A DNA stretch of 64,000 nt from Escherichia phage vB_EcoM-Pr103Blw: sequence record MW481326.1. One strand, 5' to 3'. The position numbers and the translations under genes were made by a program. This document shows, in pieces, positions 11,128 through 16,350 of this stretch. Position 1 is the stretch's first letter. Each line of letters begins with the position of its first letter. The notes beneath the pieces were generated by a model. That model worked only from the letters and a program-made list of their open reading frames with translations, did not search any database and was not told where the DNA came from.

Positions 11128-11204
11128 CTCCGTTTAGCTCAGTTTGGTTTAGCAGCACTTGCTTTGGGAGCAAGGGGTCGAGGGTTCAAATCCTTCAACG
11201 GAGA
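11128..11204 (+). tRNA. tRNA-Pro (anticodon TGG)
   Basis: 7-bp acceptor CTCCGTT/AACGGAG, anticodon loop tTTGGGa, T-arm GAGGG-TTCAAAT-CCTTC, CCA encoded. Confidence 0.7.
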
Positions 11205-11214
11205 CCAAATTAAT

Positions 11215-11289
11215 GTTCCAGTAGACAAAACGGTAAAGTCACCACTCTTTCAAAGTGGATATTTGAGGGTTCAAATCCCTTCTGGAACG
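11215..11289 (+). tRNA. tRNA-Glu (anticodon TTC)
   Basis: acceptor GTTCCAG/CTGGAAC, anticodon stem CCACT/AGTGG with loop CTTTCAA, T-loop TTCAAAT, CCA encoded. Confidence 0.7.
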
Positions 11290-11296
11290 CCAGTTT

Positions 11297-11373
11297 TGAC
11301 AGAAGACCAATTGCAGCAAATTTAATCTTATTCATCTGACAGTTAATCGGACAAAGAAGAGATTTGGTCTGGT
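11297..11373 (+). ncRNA. stem-loop RNA module 1 (ACAGAAGACC ... CAGCAAA ... TTGGTCTGG)
   Basis: 5' arm AGACCAA pairs with 3' arm TTGGTCT; shares conserved 5' motif with modules 2-4. Confidence 0.45.
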
Positions 11374-11383
11374 CATTAAGAAT

Positions 11384-11457
11384 TGCGGGTATAGAGAAAG
11401 GGCGTCTCACATGTCTCATTAGCATGGTATCGGCAGGTTCGACTCCTGCACCCGCTT
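11384..11457 (+). tRNA. tRNA-Met (anticodon CAT); T-T mismatch at top of acceptor stem
   Basis: D-stem GAGA/TCTC, anticodon stem CATGT/GCATG loop CTCATTA, T-arm GCAGG-TTCGACT-CCTGC, CCA encoded. Confidence 0.55.
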
Positions 11458-11465
11458 CCAAATTT

Positions 11466-11530
11466 ACAGAAGACCGTTTACAGCAAATTTAATGAAATTT
11501 TTAGCGGAAAAATTGAAAGATACGGTCTGG
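11466..11530 (+). ncRNA. stem-loop RNA module 2 (ACAGAAGACCGTTTACAGCAAA ... ACGGTCTGG)
   Basis: AGACCGT pairs with ACGGTCT; same conserved 5' motif. Confidence 0.45.
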
Positions 11531-11543
11531 TAATACTAAATAT

Positions 11544-11617
11544 GGTTAGGAAGCACATAAGGTATGTGCGGTCGCCTGTTAAGCGAATGGCACAGGGTTC
11601 GAATCCCTGACTAACCG
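11544..11617 (+). tRNA. tRNA-Asn (anticodon GTT)
   Basis: D-stem GCAC/GTGC, anticodon loop CTGTTAA, T-arm CAGGG-TTCGAAT-CCCTG, CCA encoded. Confidence 0.65.
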
Positions 11618-11628
11618 CCAAATTAAAT

Positions 11629-11713
11629 GTGTCGTTATCCCGTAGATGGTAGCGGTGGGGACTGTAAATCCCTTGTCATTGAGACTCGGTAGGTTCGACT
11701 CCTACACGGCACA
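11629..11713 (+). tRNA. tRNA-Tyr (anticodon GTA), long variable arm
   Basis: acceptor GTGTCGT/ACGGCAC (one G-U), anticodon stem GGGGA/TCCCT loop CTGTAAA, 15-nt variable arm, T-arm GTAGG-TTCGACT-CCTAC, CCA encoded. Confidence 0.65.
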
Positions 11714-11721
11714 CCAATAAA

Positions 11722-11795
11722 GGCTATGTAGTTTAACTGGAGAAAATACTCCCCTGTCACGGGAGATGATGTGAGTTCAAGTCTCATCGTAGCCG
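11722..11795 (+). tRNA. tRNA-Asp (anticodon GTC)
   Basis: acceptor GGCTATG/CGTAGCC, anticodon stem CTCCC/GGGAG loop CTGTCAC, CCA encoded. Confidence 0.65.
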
Positions 11796-11860
11796 CCAAT
11801 TTTTGAGATGGCTATTTAGCCCCTCCCTTAAAGAGTTCTTACGAGTATTCTTTAAAGGAG

Positions 11861-11934
11861 CAGAAGACCGAATACAGCAAGAATGTATGAAATTTCAAGC
11901 CAATTTAATTTTGAAAATTTAAAACTTGGTCTGG
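11861..11934 (+). ncRNA. stem-loop RNA module 3 (GCAGAAGACCGAATACAGCAAG ... CTTGGTCTGG)
   Basis: same arm motifs as modules 1, 2 and 4. Confidence 0.4.
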
Positions 11935-11946
11935 CTCAACAAATTT

Positions 11947-14195: not shown

Positions 14196-14438
14196 ATGCA
14201 AACATTAACAGTAGTTGAACATGAAAACTGTGAGAGTATTGAGTTTGTCAGGGTCATTGGTGTTGAACACCACATTTTCTTAAAAGTGGGATACTTATGT
14301 GACCCCGCTAGAGTAGAAAGATTTATACGTGATTGTTTTGGTGGTAGACATCTGAAGAGTGTTATTTTTGAGACAGTTTTACCAGAAGGTTTAGAAACGA
14401 ATAATAACATTTACCTCCTTACGAGGATTAGACAATGA
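14196..14438 (+). CDS. hypothetical protein embedded in tRNA array
   Basis: 80-aa ORF with RBS AAGGTG 7 nt upstream of ATG. Confidence 0.45.
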   Translation: MQTLTVVEHENCESIEFVRVIGVEHHIFLKVGYLCDPARVERFIRDCFGGRHLKSVIFETVLPEGLETNNNIYLLTRIRQ

Positions 14439-14992
14439 GATACTTAAAGTATGCTTCATGGATTTTCTTAGCTTTGTTAGAGCCATTTGCAGCAATCTTA
14501 GCAGTTATCTTAGCACCTTTTGTAGTTCCATTCTACAGTGAGAAGAAAGGACACTTACCTTTCGGGTTCAGATGGATGGAGACTTATGACAACCCAATTG
14601 ATGGTGATGCAGGTCATATCAAACGATGGGCTAAGATTAGAAAGATTGGTAAGCTTGGTGTCTACATGCAGAGAGTTGGATGGCTCTGGAGAAACAAAGC
14701 TTATAACTTCTCTTACCATGTGTTAGGAAGAGATGTAAAAGACGTTACTAAGTGGAAAGGTAATATCAACGTAAGTTCTAACCCTGAAGATAATCAGACA
14801 GGTTATCTCCTAATGTGGAACAGTAATGCTTGGGGATTATTCGCTTTTATCCCATCAATTAAAATCTTTGGTAAACAATTTTACTGGAGAATTTATGTTG
14901 GGTGGAAACTTAAAAGCGTTGTCCCAGAAGAAAGAGCATTCTCAAGGGAAAGAGTTATGTTGGCATTCTTTATTCATCCACTAAGAAAGTAA
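14435..14992 (+). CDS. putative membrane-anchored protein embedded in tRNA array
   Basis: 185-aa ORF, ATGA start/stop overlap with upstream ORF, N-terminal hydrophobic helix (WIFLALLEPFAAILAVILAPFVVPF). Confidence 0.5.
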   Translation: MRYLKYASWIFLALLEPFAAILAVILAPFVVPFYSEKKGHLPFGFRWMETYDNPIDGDAGHIKRWAKIRKIGKLGVYMQRVGWLWRNKAYNFSYHVLGRDVKDVTKWKGNINVSSNPEDNQTGYLLMWNSNAWGLFAFIPSIKIFGKQFYWRIYVGWKLKSVVPEERAFSRERVMLAFFIHPLRK

Positions 14993-15000
14993 AGATTTAA

Positions 15001-15073
15001 AGGGGATTAGTTTACAAGGTTAAAACCTCGGTCTTTGAAATCGAAGAAGTTGGTTCAATTCCAACATCCCCCG
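15001..15073 (+). tRNA. tRNA-Gln (anticodon TTG)
   Basis: anticodon stem TCGGT/ATCGA loop CTTTGAA, perfect T-arm GTTGG-TTCAATT-CCAAC, CCA encoded; position 1-72 mismatched. Confidence 0.55.
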
Positions 15074-15078
15074 CCAAT

Positions 15079-15154
15079 GCTCCATTACTCCAATTGGCAG
15101 AGAGGCCAGACTTAAAATCTGTGTTATGTATCGGTTCGAATCCGATATGGAGTA
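15079..15154 (+). tRNA. tRNA with anticodon TAA (Leu by anticodon) but short variable arm
   Basis: acceptor GCTCCAT/ATGGAGT, anticodon loop CTTAAAA, T-arm ATCGG-TTCGAAT-CCGAT, discriminator A, CCA encoded. Confidence 0.5.
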
Positions 15155-15162
15155 CCAAATTT

Positions 15163-15235
15163 AGCGGTATAGCATAACTGGCAATGCAGCAGTCTCTGAA
15201 GCTGTCTTATTAAGGTTCAAATCCTTATGCCGCTG
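15163..15235 (+). tRNA. tRNA-Gln (anticodon CTG)
   Basis: D-stem GCAT/ATGC, anticodon stem GCAGT/GCTGT loop CTCTGAA, T-arm TAAGG-TTCAAAT-CCTTA, CCA encoded. Confidence 0.6.
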
Positions 15236-15269
15236 CCACTTCTAAGGATTCTTACGAGAGTCCTTAAAT

Positions 15270-15342
15270 GTGGCCTTATCATAAACGGTAATGACCCATG
15301 CTGTGAACATGGTCTATACGGGTTCAAATCCCGTAGGTCACC
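15270..15342 (+). tRNA. tRNA-His (anticodon GTG)
   Basis: anticodon stem CCATG/CATGG loop CTGTGAA, T-arm ACGGG-TTCAAAT-CCCGT, discriminator C, CCA encoded. Confidence 0.65.
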
Positions 15343-15350
15343 CCAATTTA

Positions 15351-15425
15351 TAGTCCAAGTAGCTTATATGGTTAAAGCGCGTGTCTGAAAAACATGAGAA
15401 GAGGGTTCAAATCCCACTGGACTAC
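15351..15425 (+). tRNA. tRNA-Phe (anticodon GAA)
   Basis: perfect acceptor TAGTCCA/TGGACTA, anticodon stem CGTGT/ACATG loop CTGAAAA, T-loop TTCAAAT; exact ends uncertain. Confidence 0.55.
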
Positions 15426-15443
15426 CAATTTCAAAGGTGCTTA

Positions 15444-16178
15444 ATGAAAGAGATGACAGAACAAGGTAAGGAGATTTTCAATCTCTTAAAAACTGGTAAA
15501 GGGTTTTCTAACCCCCTTATTACTGGTGCAGCAGTTCTCGGTGGAACCGTAGCTGCCTCTACATCACTTGTAAGCTCTATTAGCTCTGTATCAGACCCTA
15601 CAGTAAAGGATAAGCTTGTTGCTGCTGGACTTACAACAGTTCTGCTTAACAGCTTTACCACGAGTCTGACAAGCACTACATCAACTACCAAAACACTGAC
15701 AGATTATGGTCAAAAGTCCATTGATGAGTTCTCATCACGTATGCAGGTAGCAAAAGGTTATTCTAATGTTATGGGTGCAGCAGGTGAACAAGTTGGCTGT
15801 ACACCATTTAGTGGTATTATGGGTGTTGCTACAGAGTATGGTCAAAAAGCTATTGATACGATTAACAGTGCACTAGATAGTGTTAATGGTGTGTTAAGTG
15901 ACTTACAAGATGCTATTGACAAAGGTCTTGATACTATTTCTGATTTAGCTGAGCAAGCTGTTAGTAAGATTAATGAAGGTATTTCAAAAATTACAGCTTA
16001 TGCAGATGAAGTTGTACAGATGATTGAAGAAGAAGCTGCTCTTATTGCAGAGTACCTTAAAACGAATATCAATGGGTTCTTAGCAGGTATCTTACCAGAC
16101 TGGTTTGATGATGCTTGTAAAACTGGTGTAATTGACACTATTGCAACACCAGAAATGAAGAACGCATTACAGAAATAA
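15444..16178 (+). CDS. hypothetical Ser/Thr-rich protein
   Basis: ORF-track ORF starts inside tRNA-Phe; internal ATG at 15444 preceded by AAAGGTG chosen as start. Confidence 0.5.
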   Translation: MKEMTEQGKEIFNLLKTGKGFSNPLITGAAVLGGTVAASTSLVSSISSVSDPTVKDKLVAAGLTTVLLNSFTTSLTSTTSTTKTLTDYGQKSIDEFSSRMQVAKGYSNVMGAAGEQVGCTPFSGIMGVATEYGQKAIDTINSALDSVNGVLSDLQDAIDKGLDTISDLAEQAVSKINEGISKITAYADEVVQMIEEEAALIAEYLKTNINGFLAGILPDWFDDACKTGVIDTIATPEMKNALQK

Positions 16179-16180
16179 AT

Positions 16181-16270
16181 GGAAGATTAACCCTAAAAGG
16201 TAAGGGAGCAGTTTGCTAAACTGCCAGTAGCTGAGAAATCGGTGTACCAGTTCAAGTCTGGTATCTTCCT
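16181..16270 (+). tRNA. tRNA-Ser (anticodon GCT), long variable arm
   Basis: perfect acceptor GGAAGAT/ATCTTCC, anticodon stem GCAGT/ACTGC loop TTGCTAA, about 20-nt variable arm, T-arm ACCAG-TTCAAGT-CTGGT, CCA encoded. Confidence 0.7.
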
Positions 16271-16277
16271 CCAATTT

Positions 16278-16350
16278 GAATCCGTGACAGAAATGGCTAT
16301 GTGCCTGTCTGCAAAACAGGTTTATAAGGGTTCGAGTCCCTTCGGATTCT
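16278..16350 (+). tRNA. tRNA-Cys (anticodon GCA)
   Basis: perfect acceptor GAATCCG/CGGATTC, anticodon stem CCTGT/ACAGG loop CTGCAAA, T-arm AAGGG-TTCGAGT-CCCTT, CCA encoded. Confidence 0.7.

Follow-up and report, generated by a model that had tools for sequence, protein, structure and literature searches.

What does a phage gain from an array of tRNA genes that serves every amino acid, and how far does such an array free it from its host? We addressed this question for the tRNA cluster of Escherichia phage vB_EcoM-Pr103Blw (MW481326.1), of which a stretch of 64,000 nucleotides, here called the window, was analysed. The window comes from a Felixounavirus, one of the Felix O1-like myoviruses that infect E. 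coli and Salmonella. ARAGORN detects 26 tRNA genes between positions 11128 and 16353, every one on the + strand (Table 1). With the Rfam tRNA model 24 of them pass the gathering score; the first CAU tRNA (11384) and the long-arm tRNA-Tyr (11629) are missed. The 26 genes serve 19 amino acids and a non-canonical tRNA-Trp adds the 20th, so that all 20 amino acids are covered. CCA is encoded in 25 of the 26 genes, or in 26 of 27 when tRNA-Trp is counted. The original prediction of about 27 tRNA genes for 20 specificities, mostly with CCA, is thus borne out: its anticodons are exactly those given by ARAGORN for the 26 genes, none is reassigned, and the default program drops a single call of the 27, the Trp-like one. 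As a whole the tRNAs come near to a minimal kit with one tRNA per codon box and mostly U at the wobble position.

Judging from the database records, the tRNA cluster itself is already known, because a relative, E. coli O157 typing phage 1 (TP1, KP869100; 98.2% identity over the cluster region), is annotated with the same 26 tRNAs. Felix O1, wV8 and TP1 (Ounavirinae) have clusters of the same gene content and order, and nothing essential differs; in the tRNA table of the Felix O1 paper 22 of the cluster's tRNAs appear. A 78-nt stem–loop (12305–12382) in the spacer between tRNA-Lys(UUU) and the second CAU tRNA is present in the window and absent from TP1.

Table 1. Features of the tRNA cluster and its flanks (positions in the window)
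Feature	Position	Strand	Evidence and remarks
Ro60-like (TROVE + vWA) protein gene	9546..10961	+	directly 5′ of cluster; Ro60-like fold, Pfam DUF2828/DUF7788
Sigma-70-like promoter TTGACA-18-TAAAGT, TG extension	11072..11101	+	10/12 matches; 26 nt 5′ of first tRNA
tRNA-Pro(UGG)	11128..11207	+	ARAGORN; Rfam tRNA model 54.1 bits; CCA encoded
tRNA-Glu(UUC)	11215..11292	+	ARAGORN; Rfam tRNA model 60.6 bits; CCA encoded
Y-RNA-like Y1, bulged terminal stem + CAGAAGACC...CAGCAA motif	11296..11377	+	40.3 bits
Initiator-like tRNA(CAU)	11384..11460	+	ARAGORN; CCA encoded
Y-RNA-like Y2	11463..11535	+	51.3 bits
tRNA-Asn(GUU)	11544..11620	+	ARAGORN, Rfam tRNA model; CCA encoded
tRNA-Tyr(GUA), long variable arm	11629..11716	+	ARAGORN; tRNA-Sec clan model 29.6 bits; CCA encoded
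tRNA-Asp(GUC)	11722..11798	+	ARAGORN, Rfam tRNA model; CCA encoded
Y-RNA-like Y3	11857..11938	+	structure/motif comparison
Y-RNA-like Y4, tRNA-mimic core	11944..12084	+	169 bits (self-match)
tRNA-Lys(UUU)	12229..12304	+	ARAGORN, Rfam tRNA model; CCA encoded
tRNA(CAU) no. 2, elongator-Met-like	12383..12459	+	ARAGORN, Rfam tRNA model
tRNA-Ile(GAU)	12461..12536	+	ARAGORN, Rfam tRNA model; CCA encoded
Sigma-70-like promoter TTGACA-17-TATAGT	12552..12580	+	11/12 matches, best of region
tmRNA-like tag element	12585..12782	+	tag frame 12630-12665, ANDNVFLAVA and two stops
tRNA-Arg(UCU)	12783..12859	+	ARAGORN; Rfam tRNA model 64.1 bits; CCA encoded
Non-canonical tRNA-Trp(CCA)	13002..13084	+	6-nt deletion test, compensatory changes; G73; CCA encoded
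tRNA-Ser(UGA)	13098..13187	+	ARAGORN; Rfam tRNA model 31.1 bits; 3′ end G-CC-T, CCA incomplete
tRNA-Leu(UAG), short, without long variable arm	13442..13518	+	ARAGORN, Rfam tRNA model
tRNA-Lys(CUU)	13526..13601	+	ARAGORN, Rfam tRNA model
tRNA-Ala(UGC)	13608..13683	+	ARAGORN, Rfam tRNA model
tRNA-Gly(UCC)	13690..13764	+	ARAGORN, Rfam tRNA model
tRNA-Thr(UGU)	13772..13847	+	ARAGORN, Rfam tRNA model
tRNA-Val(UAC)	13944..14018	+	ARAGORN, Rfam tRNA model
tRNA-Leu(CAA), short	14020..14097	+	ARAGORN, Rfam tRNA model
tRNA-Arg(ACG)	14103..14178	+	ARAGORN, Rfam tRNA model
Two small ORFs inside cluster	14196..14992	+	80 aa; 185 aa, DUF7338; hypothetical proteins in TP1
tRNA-Gln(UUG)	15001..15076	+	ARAGORN, Rfam tRNA model
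tRNA-Leu(UAA), short	15079..15157	+	ARAGORN, Rfam tRNA model
tRNA-Gln(CUG)	15163..15238	+	ARAGORN, Rfam tRNA model
tRNA-His(GUG)	15270..15345	+	ARAGORN, Rfam tRNA model
tRNA-Phe(GAA)	15352..15427	+	ARAGORN, Rfam tRNA model
Embedded ORF, 244 aa, DUF7217	15444..16178	+	putative membrane protein in Sf14 annotation
tRNA-Ser(GCU)	16181..16273	+	ARAGORN, Rfam tRNA model
tRNA-Cys(GCA)	16278..16353	+	ARAGORN, Rfam tRNA model
Terminator-like hairpins 3′ of last tRNA	16391..16533	+	GCCCTG...CAGGGC then T run, 16391-16450 (read by eye); 16516-16533 then T run

The two CAU tRNAs differ in their diagnostic positions. The first has a U1.U72 mismatch, G2-C71, C3-G70, A11:U24 and U37 and from these looks like an initiator; it is matched neither by the Rfam tRNA model nor by the clan models, and its Felix O1 counterpart has a Cove score of 28.9 in the published table. 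The second, with G1-C72 and C11:G24, looks like an elongator tRNA-Met. It had been considered that one of them might be a lysidine-dependent Ile decoder, which does not agree with these assignments nor with the share of AUA, only 4% of the phage's Ile codons. Phage T4 reads AUA with a CAU tRNA, whereas this codon is seldom used by the Felixounavirus studied here.

The Trp-like element carries about 6 extra nucleotides where the acceptor stem joins the D stem. ARAGORN at default settings does not call it, and it stays below the Rfam gathering score, reaching only 23 bits on an Rfam clan model. Dropping any 6 nucleotides within 13010–13020, however, makes the default program call tRNA-Trp(CCA). 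Across 8 distinct homologues the cloverleaf is 99.3% paired, and 8 of its 19 pairs, spread over all four helices, show compensatory changes, whereas sliding the stem partners as a control yields zero. The tRNA is under structural selection, and because of the deletion rescue and the compensatory changes we conclude from its sequence that the element is a real tRNA-Trp(CCA), as had been predicted although the default predictors reject it. It carries the established identity features of tRNA-Trp, reported by Himeno in 1991: the CCA anticodon, G73, A1-U72 and G3-C70.

Directly upstream, the Ro60-like gene raises a further question about the nature of the cluster. Four unannotated Y-RNA-like genes, Y1–Y4, are interspersed among the tRNAs and have a conserved bulged terminal stem in common; in the tRNA-mimicking core of Y4 a V hairpin is followed by a T arm, a closed acceptor-like hairpin and a D arm. 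Ro60/Y RNA modules (YrlA, YrlB) known from bacteria, mycobacteriophages and the Thermus phage phiLo likewise pair a TROVE + vWA protein with several neighbouring small RNAs; a bulged terminal stem closes these, and in one of them the tRNA-like core runs V-T-AS-D. On the other hand, the phage protein falls into Pfam DUF2828/DUF7788 and not into the TROVE family, the motifs are CAGAAGACC and YCAGCAA instead of GNCGAA(N)G / CGAA, Rfam YrlA gives no match for the phage genes, and these are interleaved with true tRNA genes.

Are all 27 genes then functional decoders? The Trp-like element could be a decaying pseudogene, which would leave the phage with 19 amino acids. Its rejection by both predictors would fit, as would the mismatches C31.A39, A49.C65 and A10.C25 and an acceptor-stem mismatch in the copy of REP10; in addition the element is annotated as a tRNA in none of the 60 records listed. 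We consider such decay quite unlikely, given the almost complete pairing and the compensatory changes in all helices. Moreover, 194 of 233 records match the element with at least 95% identity, whereas identity over the whole cluster is mostly 90–95%; the insertion shows no variation, even in Yersinia phage P778, and no relative carrying the element has a second tRNA-Trp. Very unlikely in our view is the speculation of the PhageMaP preprint that some annotated tRNAs are not decoders and that the upstream Ro60-like protein binds them as Y RNAs. Pointing in this direction are the fold of that protein and some odd members: the D region of tRNA-Trp is expanded, U37 occurs in the first CAU tRNA, and the three tRNA-Leu are short. 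However, the separate Y-RNA-like genes could fill the role without the tRNAs, and each of the 27 tRNAs has a sensible anticodon loop and an open acceptor end that carries a discriminator and CCA (CC-T for tRNA-Ser(UGA)).

The cluster holds further elements. Downstream of the internal promoter lies a tmRNA-like (SsrA-like) element. Its 10-codon tag frame begins with GCA AAC GAC (Ala-Asn-Asp) after an A-rich leader, the end of the tag is Ala-rich, and the stop codons lie within a hairpin; the tag, ANDNVFLAVA, compares with ANDENYALAA of E. coli tmRNA. Unlike tmRNA, the element spans only about 200 nt. Neither a tRNA-like domain nor the pseudoknot set was found in it, and it scores under the default thresholds of Rfam and ARAGORN. 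The embedded 80-aa ORF has no Pfam match.

Codon usage gives a hint at what the tRNAs are for. When 62 phage ORFs were compared with 27 E. coli genes, codons with a phage tRNA were enriched in the phage: AGA 15.5-fold, ACA 5.4, TCA 3.6, AAG 3.0, CTA 2.4, TTA 2.4, CCA 2.3, GTA 2.0, GCA 1.8 and CAA 1.8. The tRNA set fits the phage's bias for A/U-ending codons, and this is the best-supported explanation here; in the original prediction a comparison of codon usage figures just as a check. tRNA-Lys(CUU) has no counterpart in E. coli K-12 among the loci examined. We suggest, with a probability of roughly 80%, that the cluster is a tRNA operon whose main role would be to supply decoding capacity for the AT-rich codons of the phage, and whose second, conditional role would be to sustain translation in cells whose own tRNAs are missing, depleted or cleaved. 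Host-type promoters would probably give rise to polycistronic precursors, from which host RNase P and 3′ processing would probably free the tRNAs; with the CCA encoded, most of them would not depend on CCA addition, and we infer that each is expressed and charged. Promoter-like sites are no more numerous in the region than chance would give, so the site at 11072 is only suggestive as the cluster promoter. Counted against this explanation were the low scorers tRNA-Ser(UGA) (31 bits) and the first CAU tRNA (no Rfam match) as well as the mismatch in REP10's tRNA-Trp.

Independence from host tRNA pools, as originally predicted, is not complete, and the coverage of the set is by amino acid and not by codon. 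It is not obvious that tRNA-Gly(UCC) reads GGU, the commonest Gly codon (47 per 1000), and host tRNAs are probably still needed for GGU/GGC, CGG and AUA. The tRNAs of relatives can replace those of the host, as described for the Felixounavirus tRNA-Ser(UGA) (PMC12269064, PMC13596443); the tRNA-Ser(UGA) of the window is identical to that of REP10 at 87 of 90 positions, with one compensatory stem change.

Two narrower functions have to be weighed against this combined role. That the tRNAs only top up host-rare isoacceptors, with no aspect of defence or shutoff, would agree with the codon enrichment; we consider it unlikely, as tRNAs also exist for non-enriched or depleted codons (CAG 0.6-fold, AGC 0.4, CGT 0.57, ATC 0.66, TGC 0.63, TTC 0.79), synonymous-codon bias cannot explain the initiator-like tRNA or tRNA-Trp, and a host without two Ser tRNAs still supports Felixounavirus growth. 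Conversely, the cluster might chiefly provide nuclease-resistant tRNAs against PARIS, PrrC, VapC, colicins and retron effectors, the codon match being secondary, a hypothesis with precedents in PMC10264068, PMC11464382, PMC12409363 and PMC11555353. The anticodon stem differs from that of the host in every phage tRNA compared. The AriB (PARIS) site U36AAUC/A41 reads UAAUC/U in phage tRNA-Lys, UAAGU/A in tRNA-Thr and UAAGC/G in tRNA-Asn, so that UAAUC/A is absent from all three, and the VapC site A38/C39 is U37-A38/G39 in the initiator-like tRNA. In addition, the Ro60-like protein of Bas63 counters the ppl defence system (PhageMaP preprint). On the other hand, 13 of 25 comparable anticodon loops are the same as in the host cognate, among them those of both tRNA-Arg and the 7-nt loops of Lys-UUU, Tyr, Asn and Asp, the tRNAs that PrrC and colicin E5 target; evasion by loop mutation is thus not general. 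Nuclease evasion, a further part of the original prediction, is plausible, and the support for it is indirect. A set for 20 amino acids is also far larger than the handful of known nuclease targets, and the choice of wobble U closely follows the phage codon bias. A chiefly anti-defensive cluster is thus possible but doubtful.

The decoding operon that we favour can be likened to the large, strongly expressed tRNA arrays of the lytic coliphages T5 (about 24 tRNAs) and T4 (8 tRNAs), which are of unrelated phage family. The T5 tRNAs for Lys, Thr, Asn and Tyr were shown to defeat PARIS and retron-Eco7 (PMC11555353 among the sources); this effect is experimental, whereas the Felixounavirus tRNAs are known here from sequence and may resist particular nucleases. 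Oversupply from a strong promoter is the route shown for T5 tRNA-Tyr (PMC11555353), and the near-consensus promoters at 11072 and 12552 would fit such a route. In Bas63, a phage of the same genus, the tRNA genes are mostly non-essential on four laboratory strains of E. coli (PhageMaP preprint), and thus the benefit of the tRNAs to these phages would be conditional or quantitative.

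We suggest that the 'tRNA cluster' of this phage may be a composite RNA island around a Ro60-like protein, present in the Ounavirinae and in many other phages, in which tRNAs stand together with Y-RNA-like RNAs and a tag RNA. In this reading, to which we assign as a whole a probability of about 0.45, a deviant tRNA-Trp missed by annotation pipelines completes a kit for 20 amino acids, and the Y-RNA-like RNAs, one of which mimics a tRNA, form a previously undescribed family that is characterized by a bulged stem and the motif YCAGCAA and is linked to DUF2828-type Ro60 genes in very distant phages. 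The tag RNA, of the type AND....A, would lack a tRNA-like domain, and its conserved 5′ motif would be antisense to the tag codons of the host tmRNA. Together these components may constitute a phage system for tRNA quality control, defence evasion, and ribosome rescue. The features discussed are listed in the table.

Coordinates of the cluster elements in the window and of related elements in comparison loci (L-numbers)
Feature	Position	Strand	Remark
Ro60-like ORF	9546-10961	+	directly upstream of the cluster
26 tRNA genes	11128-16353	+	ARAGORN, default settings
Y1, candidate Y-RNA-like gene	11296-11377	+	unannotated, between tRNAs; covarying bulged terminal stem
Y2, candidate Y-RNA-like gene	11463-11535	+	as Y1
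Y3, candidate Y-RNA-like gene	11857-11938	+	as Y1
Y4, candidate Y-RNA-like gene	11944-12084	+	as Y1
First CAU tRNA	11384-11460	+	
Second CAU tRNA	12383-12459	+	
Non-canonical tRNA-Trp	13002-13084		
tRNA-Leu genes	13442-13518, 14020-14097, 15079-15157	+	
Promoter-like site	12552-12580		TTGACA-17-TATAGT
tmRNA-like element	12585-12782	+	between tRNA-Ile(GAU) and tRNA-Arg(UCU)
Tag frame	12630-12665		
149-nt element	12080-12228	+	
78-nt stem-loop	12305-12382	+	between tRNA-Lys(UUU) and second CAU tRNA
AT-rich hairpins	~11825-11860, ~12748-12778, ~15243-15267	+	
Fold in tRNA-Thr/tRNA-Val spacer	13848-13943	+	
tRNA-Trp copy of phage REP10	L023:4513-4595		
RNAs related to Y1-Y4, distant IMG/VR loci (examples)	L053:7862-7985, L099:5291-5424, L072:4900-5021		flanking Ro60-like gene
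Full tmRNA gene, distant IMG/VR contig	L045:7736-8185		75 bits; near Ro60-like gene
Suppressor ('Stop') tRNAs, distant IMG/VR loci	L102:3231, L103:4374		near Ro60-like gene

The tRNA cluster as such is textbook for the phage genus and nothing new in itself. At default settings ARAGORN finds its tRNA genes nowhere else in the window, and all 26 have the 7-bp acceptor stem, the D, anticodon, and T arms, and the 7-nt anticodon loop of canonical tRNAs. Rfam RF00005 detects 24 of the 26 above the gathering score; the misses are the first CAU tRNA, which is detected by ARAGORN only, and a long-arm tRNA-Tyr, which reaches 29.6 bits on the related tRNA-Sec clan model in the E-value mode of Rfam. The original prediction stated that CCA is mostly encoded, and in fact a discriminator followed by CCA is found, as in E. 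coli genes, in 25 of the 26 canonical tRNAs, the 3′ end of tRNA-Ser(UGA) being G-CC-T. The cluster is 98.2% identical to that of the closest relative, the Felixounavirus E. coli O157 typing phage 1 (TP1, KP869100), over 99% of the 5.5-kb query, and the TP1 record has the same 26 tRNAs annotated in identical order. The region is matched by 371 phage records, the tRNA order is the same in Mooglevirus and Suspvirus, and the genes, flanked by the DUF2828 and the terminase gene, keep a conserved order, as in a Felixounavirus cluster. Since the tRNAs are listed in the TP1 annotation, in the table of the Felix O1 genome paper (22 tRNAs, with Tyr marked 'pseudo' and a Cove score of 28.9 for the first Met), and in a comparative paper that used tRNAscan-SE (17-23 tRNAs per genome), the cluster, which is real, is already known and annotated.

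The additional calls which ARAGORN produces with lowered thresholds and introns are spurious, as they comprise reverse-strand ghosts and introns of hundreds to more than 1000 nt. Likewise, the reverse-strand matches of Rfam in the cluster at E-values up to 10 ('Plastid-ycf2', miRNA, and YrlA at 15291) are artefacts of tRNA sequence. The three tRNA-Leu genes are only 77-79 nt long, compared with 85-87 nt in E. coli, with variable loops of 5-7 nt; none of them has the long variable arm of class II tRNAs. They keep the Leu-type 3-bp D stem, the large D loop, and A73, and the short form is conserved in all relatives examined.

The anticodons and amino-acid assignments of the original prediction are those of ARAGORN for the 26 genes. 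These genes cover 19 amino acids, Trp being absent, and the predicted figures of 27 genes and 20 specificities are correct once a non-canonical tRNA-Trp, supported by covariation, is counted. This element has a perfect 7-bp acceptor stem (ATGGGAC/GTCCCAT), a discriminator G, an encoded CCA, a CUCCAAA anticodon loop, and a T arm. It is rejected by default ARAGORN and by Rfam, and a canonical D arm (2-nt connector, 3-4-bp stem, 7-11-nt loop) is not present: the distance between the acceptor and the anticodon stem is 26 nt versus 19-22 nt normally. Any deletion of 6 nt within 13010-13020 leads ARAGORN to call tRNA-Trp(CCA) at the default threshold. The identity set of the E. coli TrpRS consists of the anticodon CCA in a CUCCAAA loop, G73, A1-U72, and G3-C70. 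By comparison with E. coli trpT the complete set is present in the element, with U-A instead of G-C at position 2:71.

The element is found in 233 phage records, 194 of them with at least 95% identity, and among the 60 matches listed none carries a tRNA annotation for it. We aligned ten homologues, eight of them distinct, from Felixounavirus, Mooglevirus, Suspvirus, and the Yersinia phage P778. For a cloverleaf that combines a CUC/GAG D stem with a 9-10-nt connector, pairing in this set is 99.3%, and compensatory double changes are observed in 8 of the 19 stem pairs with all four helices represented; no shuffle reached the covariation score and slid partners show no compensatory changes. An alternative D stem (UGUU/AGCA, with a 16-nt D loop) is incompatible with the A-to-U change that Mooglevirus and the Yersinia phage show at 13031, whereas CUC/GAG covaries. 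The extra nucleotides are invariant, phage P778 included. A canonical tRNA-Trp is present in the Erwinia phage Ep030 (Kolesnikvirus), and the expansion of the D region is therefore derived in the lineage studied here. No second Trp tRNA was found in the relatives that carry the non-canonical element. We conclude that the element is probably a functional non-canonical tRNA-Trp. In the copy of phage REP10 the acceptor stem has a mismatch (GTCACAT) and the anticodon loop two changes (CUUCCAAC). Possibly the gene is relaxing in that lineage.

Two tRNAs of the cluster have the anticodon CAU, and it had been proposed that one of them may be a lysidine-dependent Ile decoder. The determinants of the E. 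coli lysidine synthetase TilS in tRNA-Ile2 are C4-G69 and C5-G68. The second CAU tRNA has U4-A69, like tRNA-Met, and C5-G68, like ileX; it also has G1-C72 and C11:G24, is closest to the elongator tRNA-Met of E. coli, and over its whole sequence is 0.61 identical to metT versus 0.58 to ileX. The first CAU tRNA resembles an initiator: its 1:72 pair is U:U, and in nine relatives U:C, C:C, or A:A, so that the mismatch is always kept while the bases vary. In addition, it has the acceptor core of the E. coli fMet tRNA (G2-C71, C3-G70, in the stem UGCGGGU/ACCCGCU) and A11:U24 in the D stem GAGA/UCUC. The three G-C pairs typical of initiators (29-31:39-41) are not present in its anticodon stem (CAUGU/GCAUG), and its loop, CUCAUUA, has an unusual conserved U37. 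A demand for tRNA-Ile2 is not apparent either, as AUA accounts for 2.5 per 1000 codons and 4% of the Ile codons, equal to the E. coli sample. With AUA rare and with initiator and elongator-Met features in the two genes, a lysidine-dependent decoder is unsupported, and a pair of putative initiator and elongator tRNAs is the better reading, tRNA-Ile2 being a less likely identity of the second gene.

What the tRNA set might be good for can be judged from codon usage and from the comparison with the host tRNAs. In the 16,774 codons of 62 window ORFs, compared with 27 E. coli K-12 genes, the phage favours A/U-ending codons, and in four-codon boxes the phage tRNA is nearly always the wobble-U isoacceptor. 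Codons with a cognate phage tRNA are strongly enriched relative to E. coli, namely AGA (15.5x), ACA (5.4x), TCA (3.6x), AAG (3.0x), CTA and TTA (2.4x each), and CCA (2.3x). The E. coli K-12 loci examined include no counterpart of the tRNA-Lys(CUU), which reads AAG. The comparison of codon usage proposed in the original prediction does not show enrichment for every codon: phage tRNAs also exist for CAG (0.6x), AGC (0.4x), and CGT (0.57x), which are not enriched, and therefore compensation of the codon bias alone cannot explain the complete set. Conversely, GGU/GGC, CGG, and AUA are probably still decoded by host tRNAs. Eight of twelve phages isolated on Syn61d3 are Felixounaviruses; this strain is devoid of serT, serU, and RF1, and the phages depend on a viral tRNA-Ser(UGA) (PMC12269064, PMC13596443). 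The tRNA-Ser(UGA) of the window is identical to the REP10 copy at 87 of 90 positions, and one stem change is compensatory. The tRNA genes of the related phage Bas63 are mostly dispensable on four laboratory strains (PhageMaP preprint), which fits a conditional role of the tRNAs.

A further proposal was that the phage tRNAs escape anticodon nucleases. When each phage tRNA is compared with its E. coli K-12 cognate locus, all anticodon stems and 12 of 25 anticodon loops differ, the latter mostly at positions 32, 37, and 38; on the other hand, the 7-nt loops are identical in 13 of 25, including those for Lys-UUU, Tyr, Asn, Asp, and both Arg. The nuclease AriB of the PARIS system has its cut site between positions 40 and 41 of the E. 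coli tRNAs for Lys, Thr, and Asn, within U36AAUC↓A41 in Lys and Thr and UAAUC↓C in Asn. At this site the phage has UAAUC↓U in Lys, UAAGU↓A in Thr, and UAAGC↓G in Asn, and these alterations would be compatible with resistance to PARIS. Nuclease evasion is a plausible part of the originally proposed independence from host tRNA pools. The best explanation is a tRNA supply that would be fitted to the codon bias and would also insure the phage against the loss of host tRNAs; the original interpretation is partly supported, and its lysidine decoder is not.

The Ro60-like ORF has only DUF2828 and DUF7788 in Pfam; TROVE membership was not found by sequence, and a sequence search against the Ro60 chains of the PDB gave no match. 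The fold search alone succeeded. The AlphaFold2 model (pLDDT 89) has a HEAT-repeat ring and a C-terminal vWA domain, and its best 11 PDB fold matches, among them the Ro60 of Thermus phage phiLo, are all Ro60/TROVE proteins (E 8e-8 to 2.6e-6, TM-score at most 0.66). We are confident that the predicted fold is Ro60/TROVE plus vWA. The counterpart in phage Bas63 is gp130, which according to the PhageMaP preprint has the same fold and counters the ppl defence system; the preprint also speculates that there might be Y RNAs among the annotated tRNAs. Homologues are found in 709 phage records. Of 75 distant IMG/VR loci, 23 have tRNA genes no more than 3.5 kb from the Ro60-like gene, mostly directly downstream of it and on the same strand.

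Y RNA candidates are found between the tRNAs. The motif CAGAAGACCNNNTRCAGCAA occurs in four copies in tRNA spacers, versus 0.02 expected by chance, and nowhere else in the window, and each copy is paired with a downstream GGTCTGG. The corresponding genes Y1-Y4 have the invariant motifs CAGAAGACC...CAGCAA / GGTCTGG and a common fold, in which the outer stem, of 4 bp, is variable, the internal loop is AGA/G, and the inner stem is AGACCNN/NNGGUCU. Nine phages yielded 16 distinct copies, in which the terminal stem is 100% paired and compensatory changes occur in 5 of 11 pairs. Y4, located ~1 kb downstream of the Ro60-like ORF on the same strand, encloses in this order a V hairpin, a T arm, a closed 7-bp acceptor-like hairpin, and a D arm. 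With these parts, 11971-12065 could be taken for a permuted or split tRNA gene or for tRNA debris. However, the three paralogues of Y4 have the bulged stem as well but lack a tRNA-like core, and in the RNAalifold consensus the acceptor-like hairpin covaries as a closed hairpin, which argues for a Y-RNA-like gene instead.

The order of the Y4 core is instead that of the YrlA architecture (Chen et al.), although the YrlA 5′ motif GNCGAA(N)G is missing. The Rfam model of YrlA (RF02553) has no match at the position of Y4, even at E-values up to 10, and nothing at gathering score in 31 related loci, and Rfam matches neither Y1-Y4 nor the related RNAs; for these reasons we do not place the RNAs in the curated YrlA family. 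A covariance model of Y4 yields 49 hits at E <1 across 78 sources, all on the strand of the Ro60-like gene. Hits lie next to the homologous Ro60-like gene in no fewer than 14 distant IMG/VR loci, and many of the adjoining hits belong to contigs with a protein of only 39-47% identity. The terminal stem and the YCAGCAA motif are common to the hits, and most have the T / acceptor-like / D core. We file Y1-Y4 as candidate Ro60 partners that would work like Y RNAs.

The promoter-like site that precedes the tmRNA-like element is near-consensus and the best of the region. Its tag frame (GCA AAC GAC AAT GTT TTT CTG GCA GTA GCT TGA TAG) resumes at GCA and encodes ANDNVFLAVA, with a hydrophobic, Ala-rich end and two stop codons; the tag of the E. 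coli tmRNA is ANDENYALAA. The tmRNA models of Rfam stay below threshold (17.4 and 28.9 bits versus a gathering score of 47), and ARAGORN reports a permuted tmRNA with the ANDNVFLAVA tag only at -ps90, borrowing the neighbouring tRNAs. A tRNA-like domain (G3:U70, T arm, CCA) and pseudoknots were not found within the element. It matches 606 phage records from several families, with no RNA annotation among the matches listed. The 10-residue AND...A frame is kept in five phage lineages with synonymous changes, for example ANDNTFLAVA with one stop codon in a Serratia Ackermannviridae phage, and ANDDVVLMAA in Salmonella Skatevirus and ANDAQFLAVA in Erwinia Kolesnikvirus, each with two. The element with this frame is conserved in Ounavirinae, Ackermannviridae, and Skatevirus phages; Klebsiella phages match the element, but the tag frame was not recovered there. 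Most of these lineages have the 5′ motif UAGUUUUCGU, in the Serratia phage GGUUUUCGU. The motif UAGUUUUCGU is antisense to the SsrA tag codons of the host, matching ssrA 81-111 at 25 of 32 positions.

Further structures are present in the spacers. The 149-nt element has a closing stem of ~24 bp and an MFE z-score of -6.5; between its Felixounavirus and its Mooglevirus/Suspvirus versions 6 of 34 predicted pairs are compensatory and the interiors differ. The stable 78-nt stem-loop (z-score -4.3) is missing in TP1, where only 4 nt separate the two tRNA genes, which suggests a small insertion. Recurrent AT-rich hairpins of the form (C)TTTAAAG / TAAGGA ... CTTACGAG ... TCCTTA / CTTTAAAG adjoin the 5′ side of Y3, tRNA-Arg(UCU), and tRNA-His and may be processing or regulatory signals. 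The stable fold in the tRNA-Thr/tRNA-Val spacer (z-score -3.8) is closed by AGAGGTC/GACCTCT.

Felixounavirus tRNAs enable the breaking of the 'virus-proof' recoded E. coli Syn61d3, and phage tRNAs are now recognised as counters to tRNA-cleaving immunity. The parts that deserve follow-up are the hidden tRNA-Trp, the Y-RNA-like genes, and the tmRNA-like element. The genus encodes a tRNA-Trp of expanded D region, with which the kit would be complete for all 20 amino acids; standard pipelines count too few of its members. Y-RNA candidates for the Ro60-like anti-defence protein (Bas63 gp130) now have names, and a tmRNA-like tag element that is widespread but unannotated appears to share an operon with the tRNAs.
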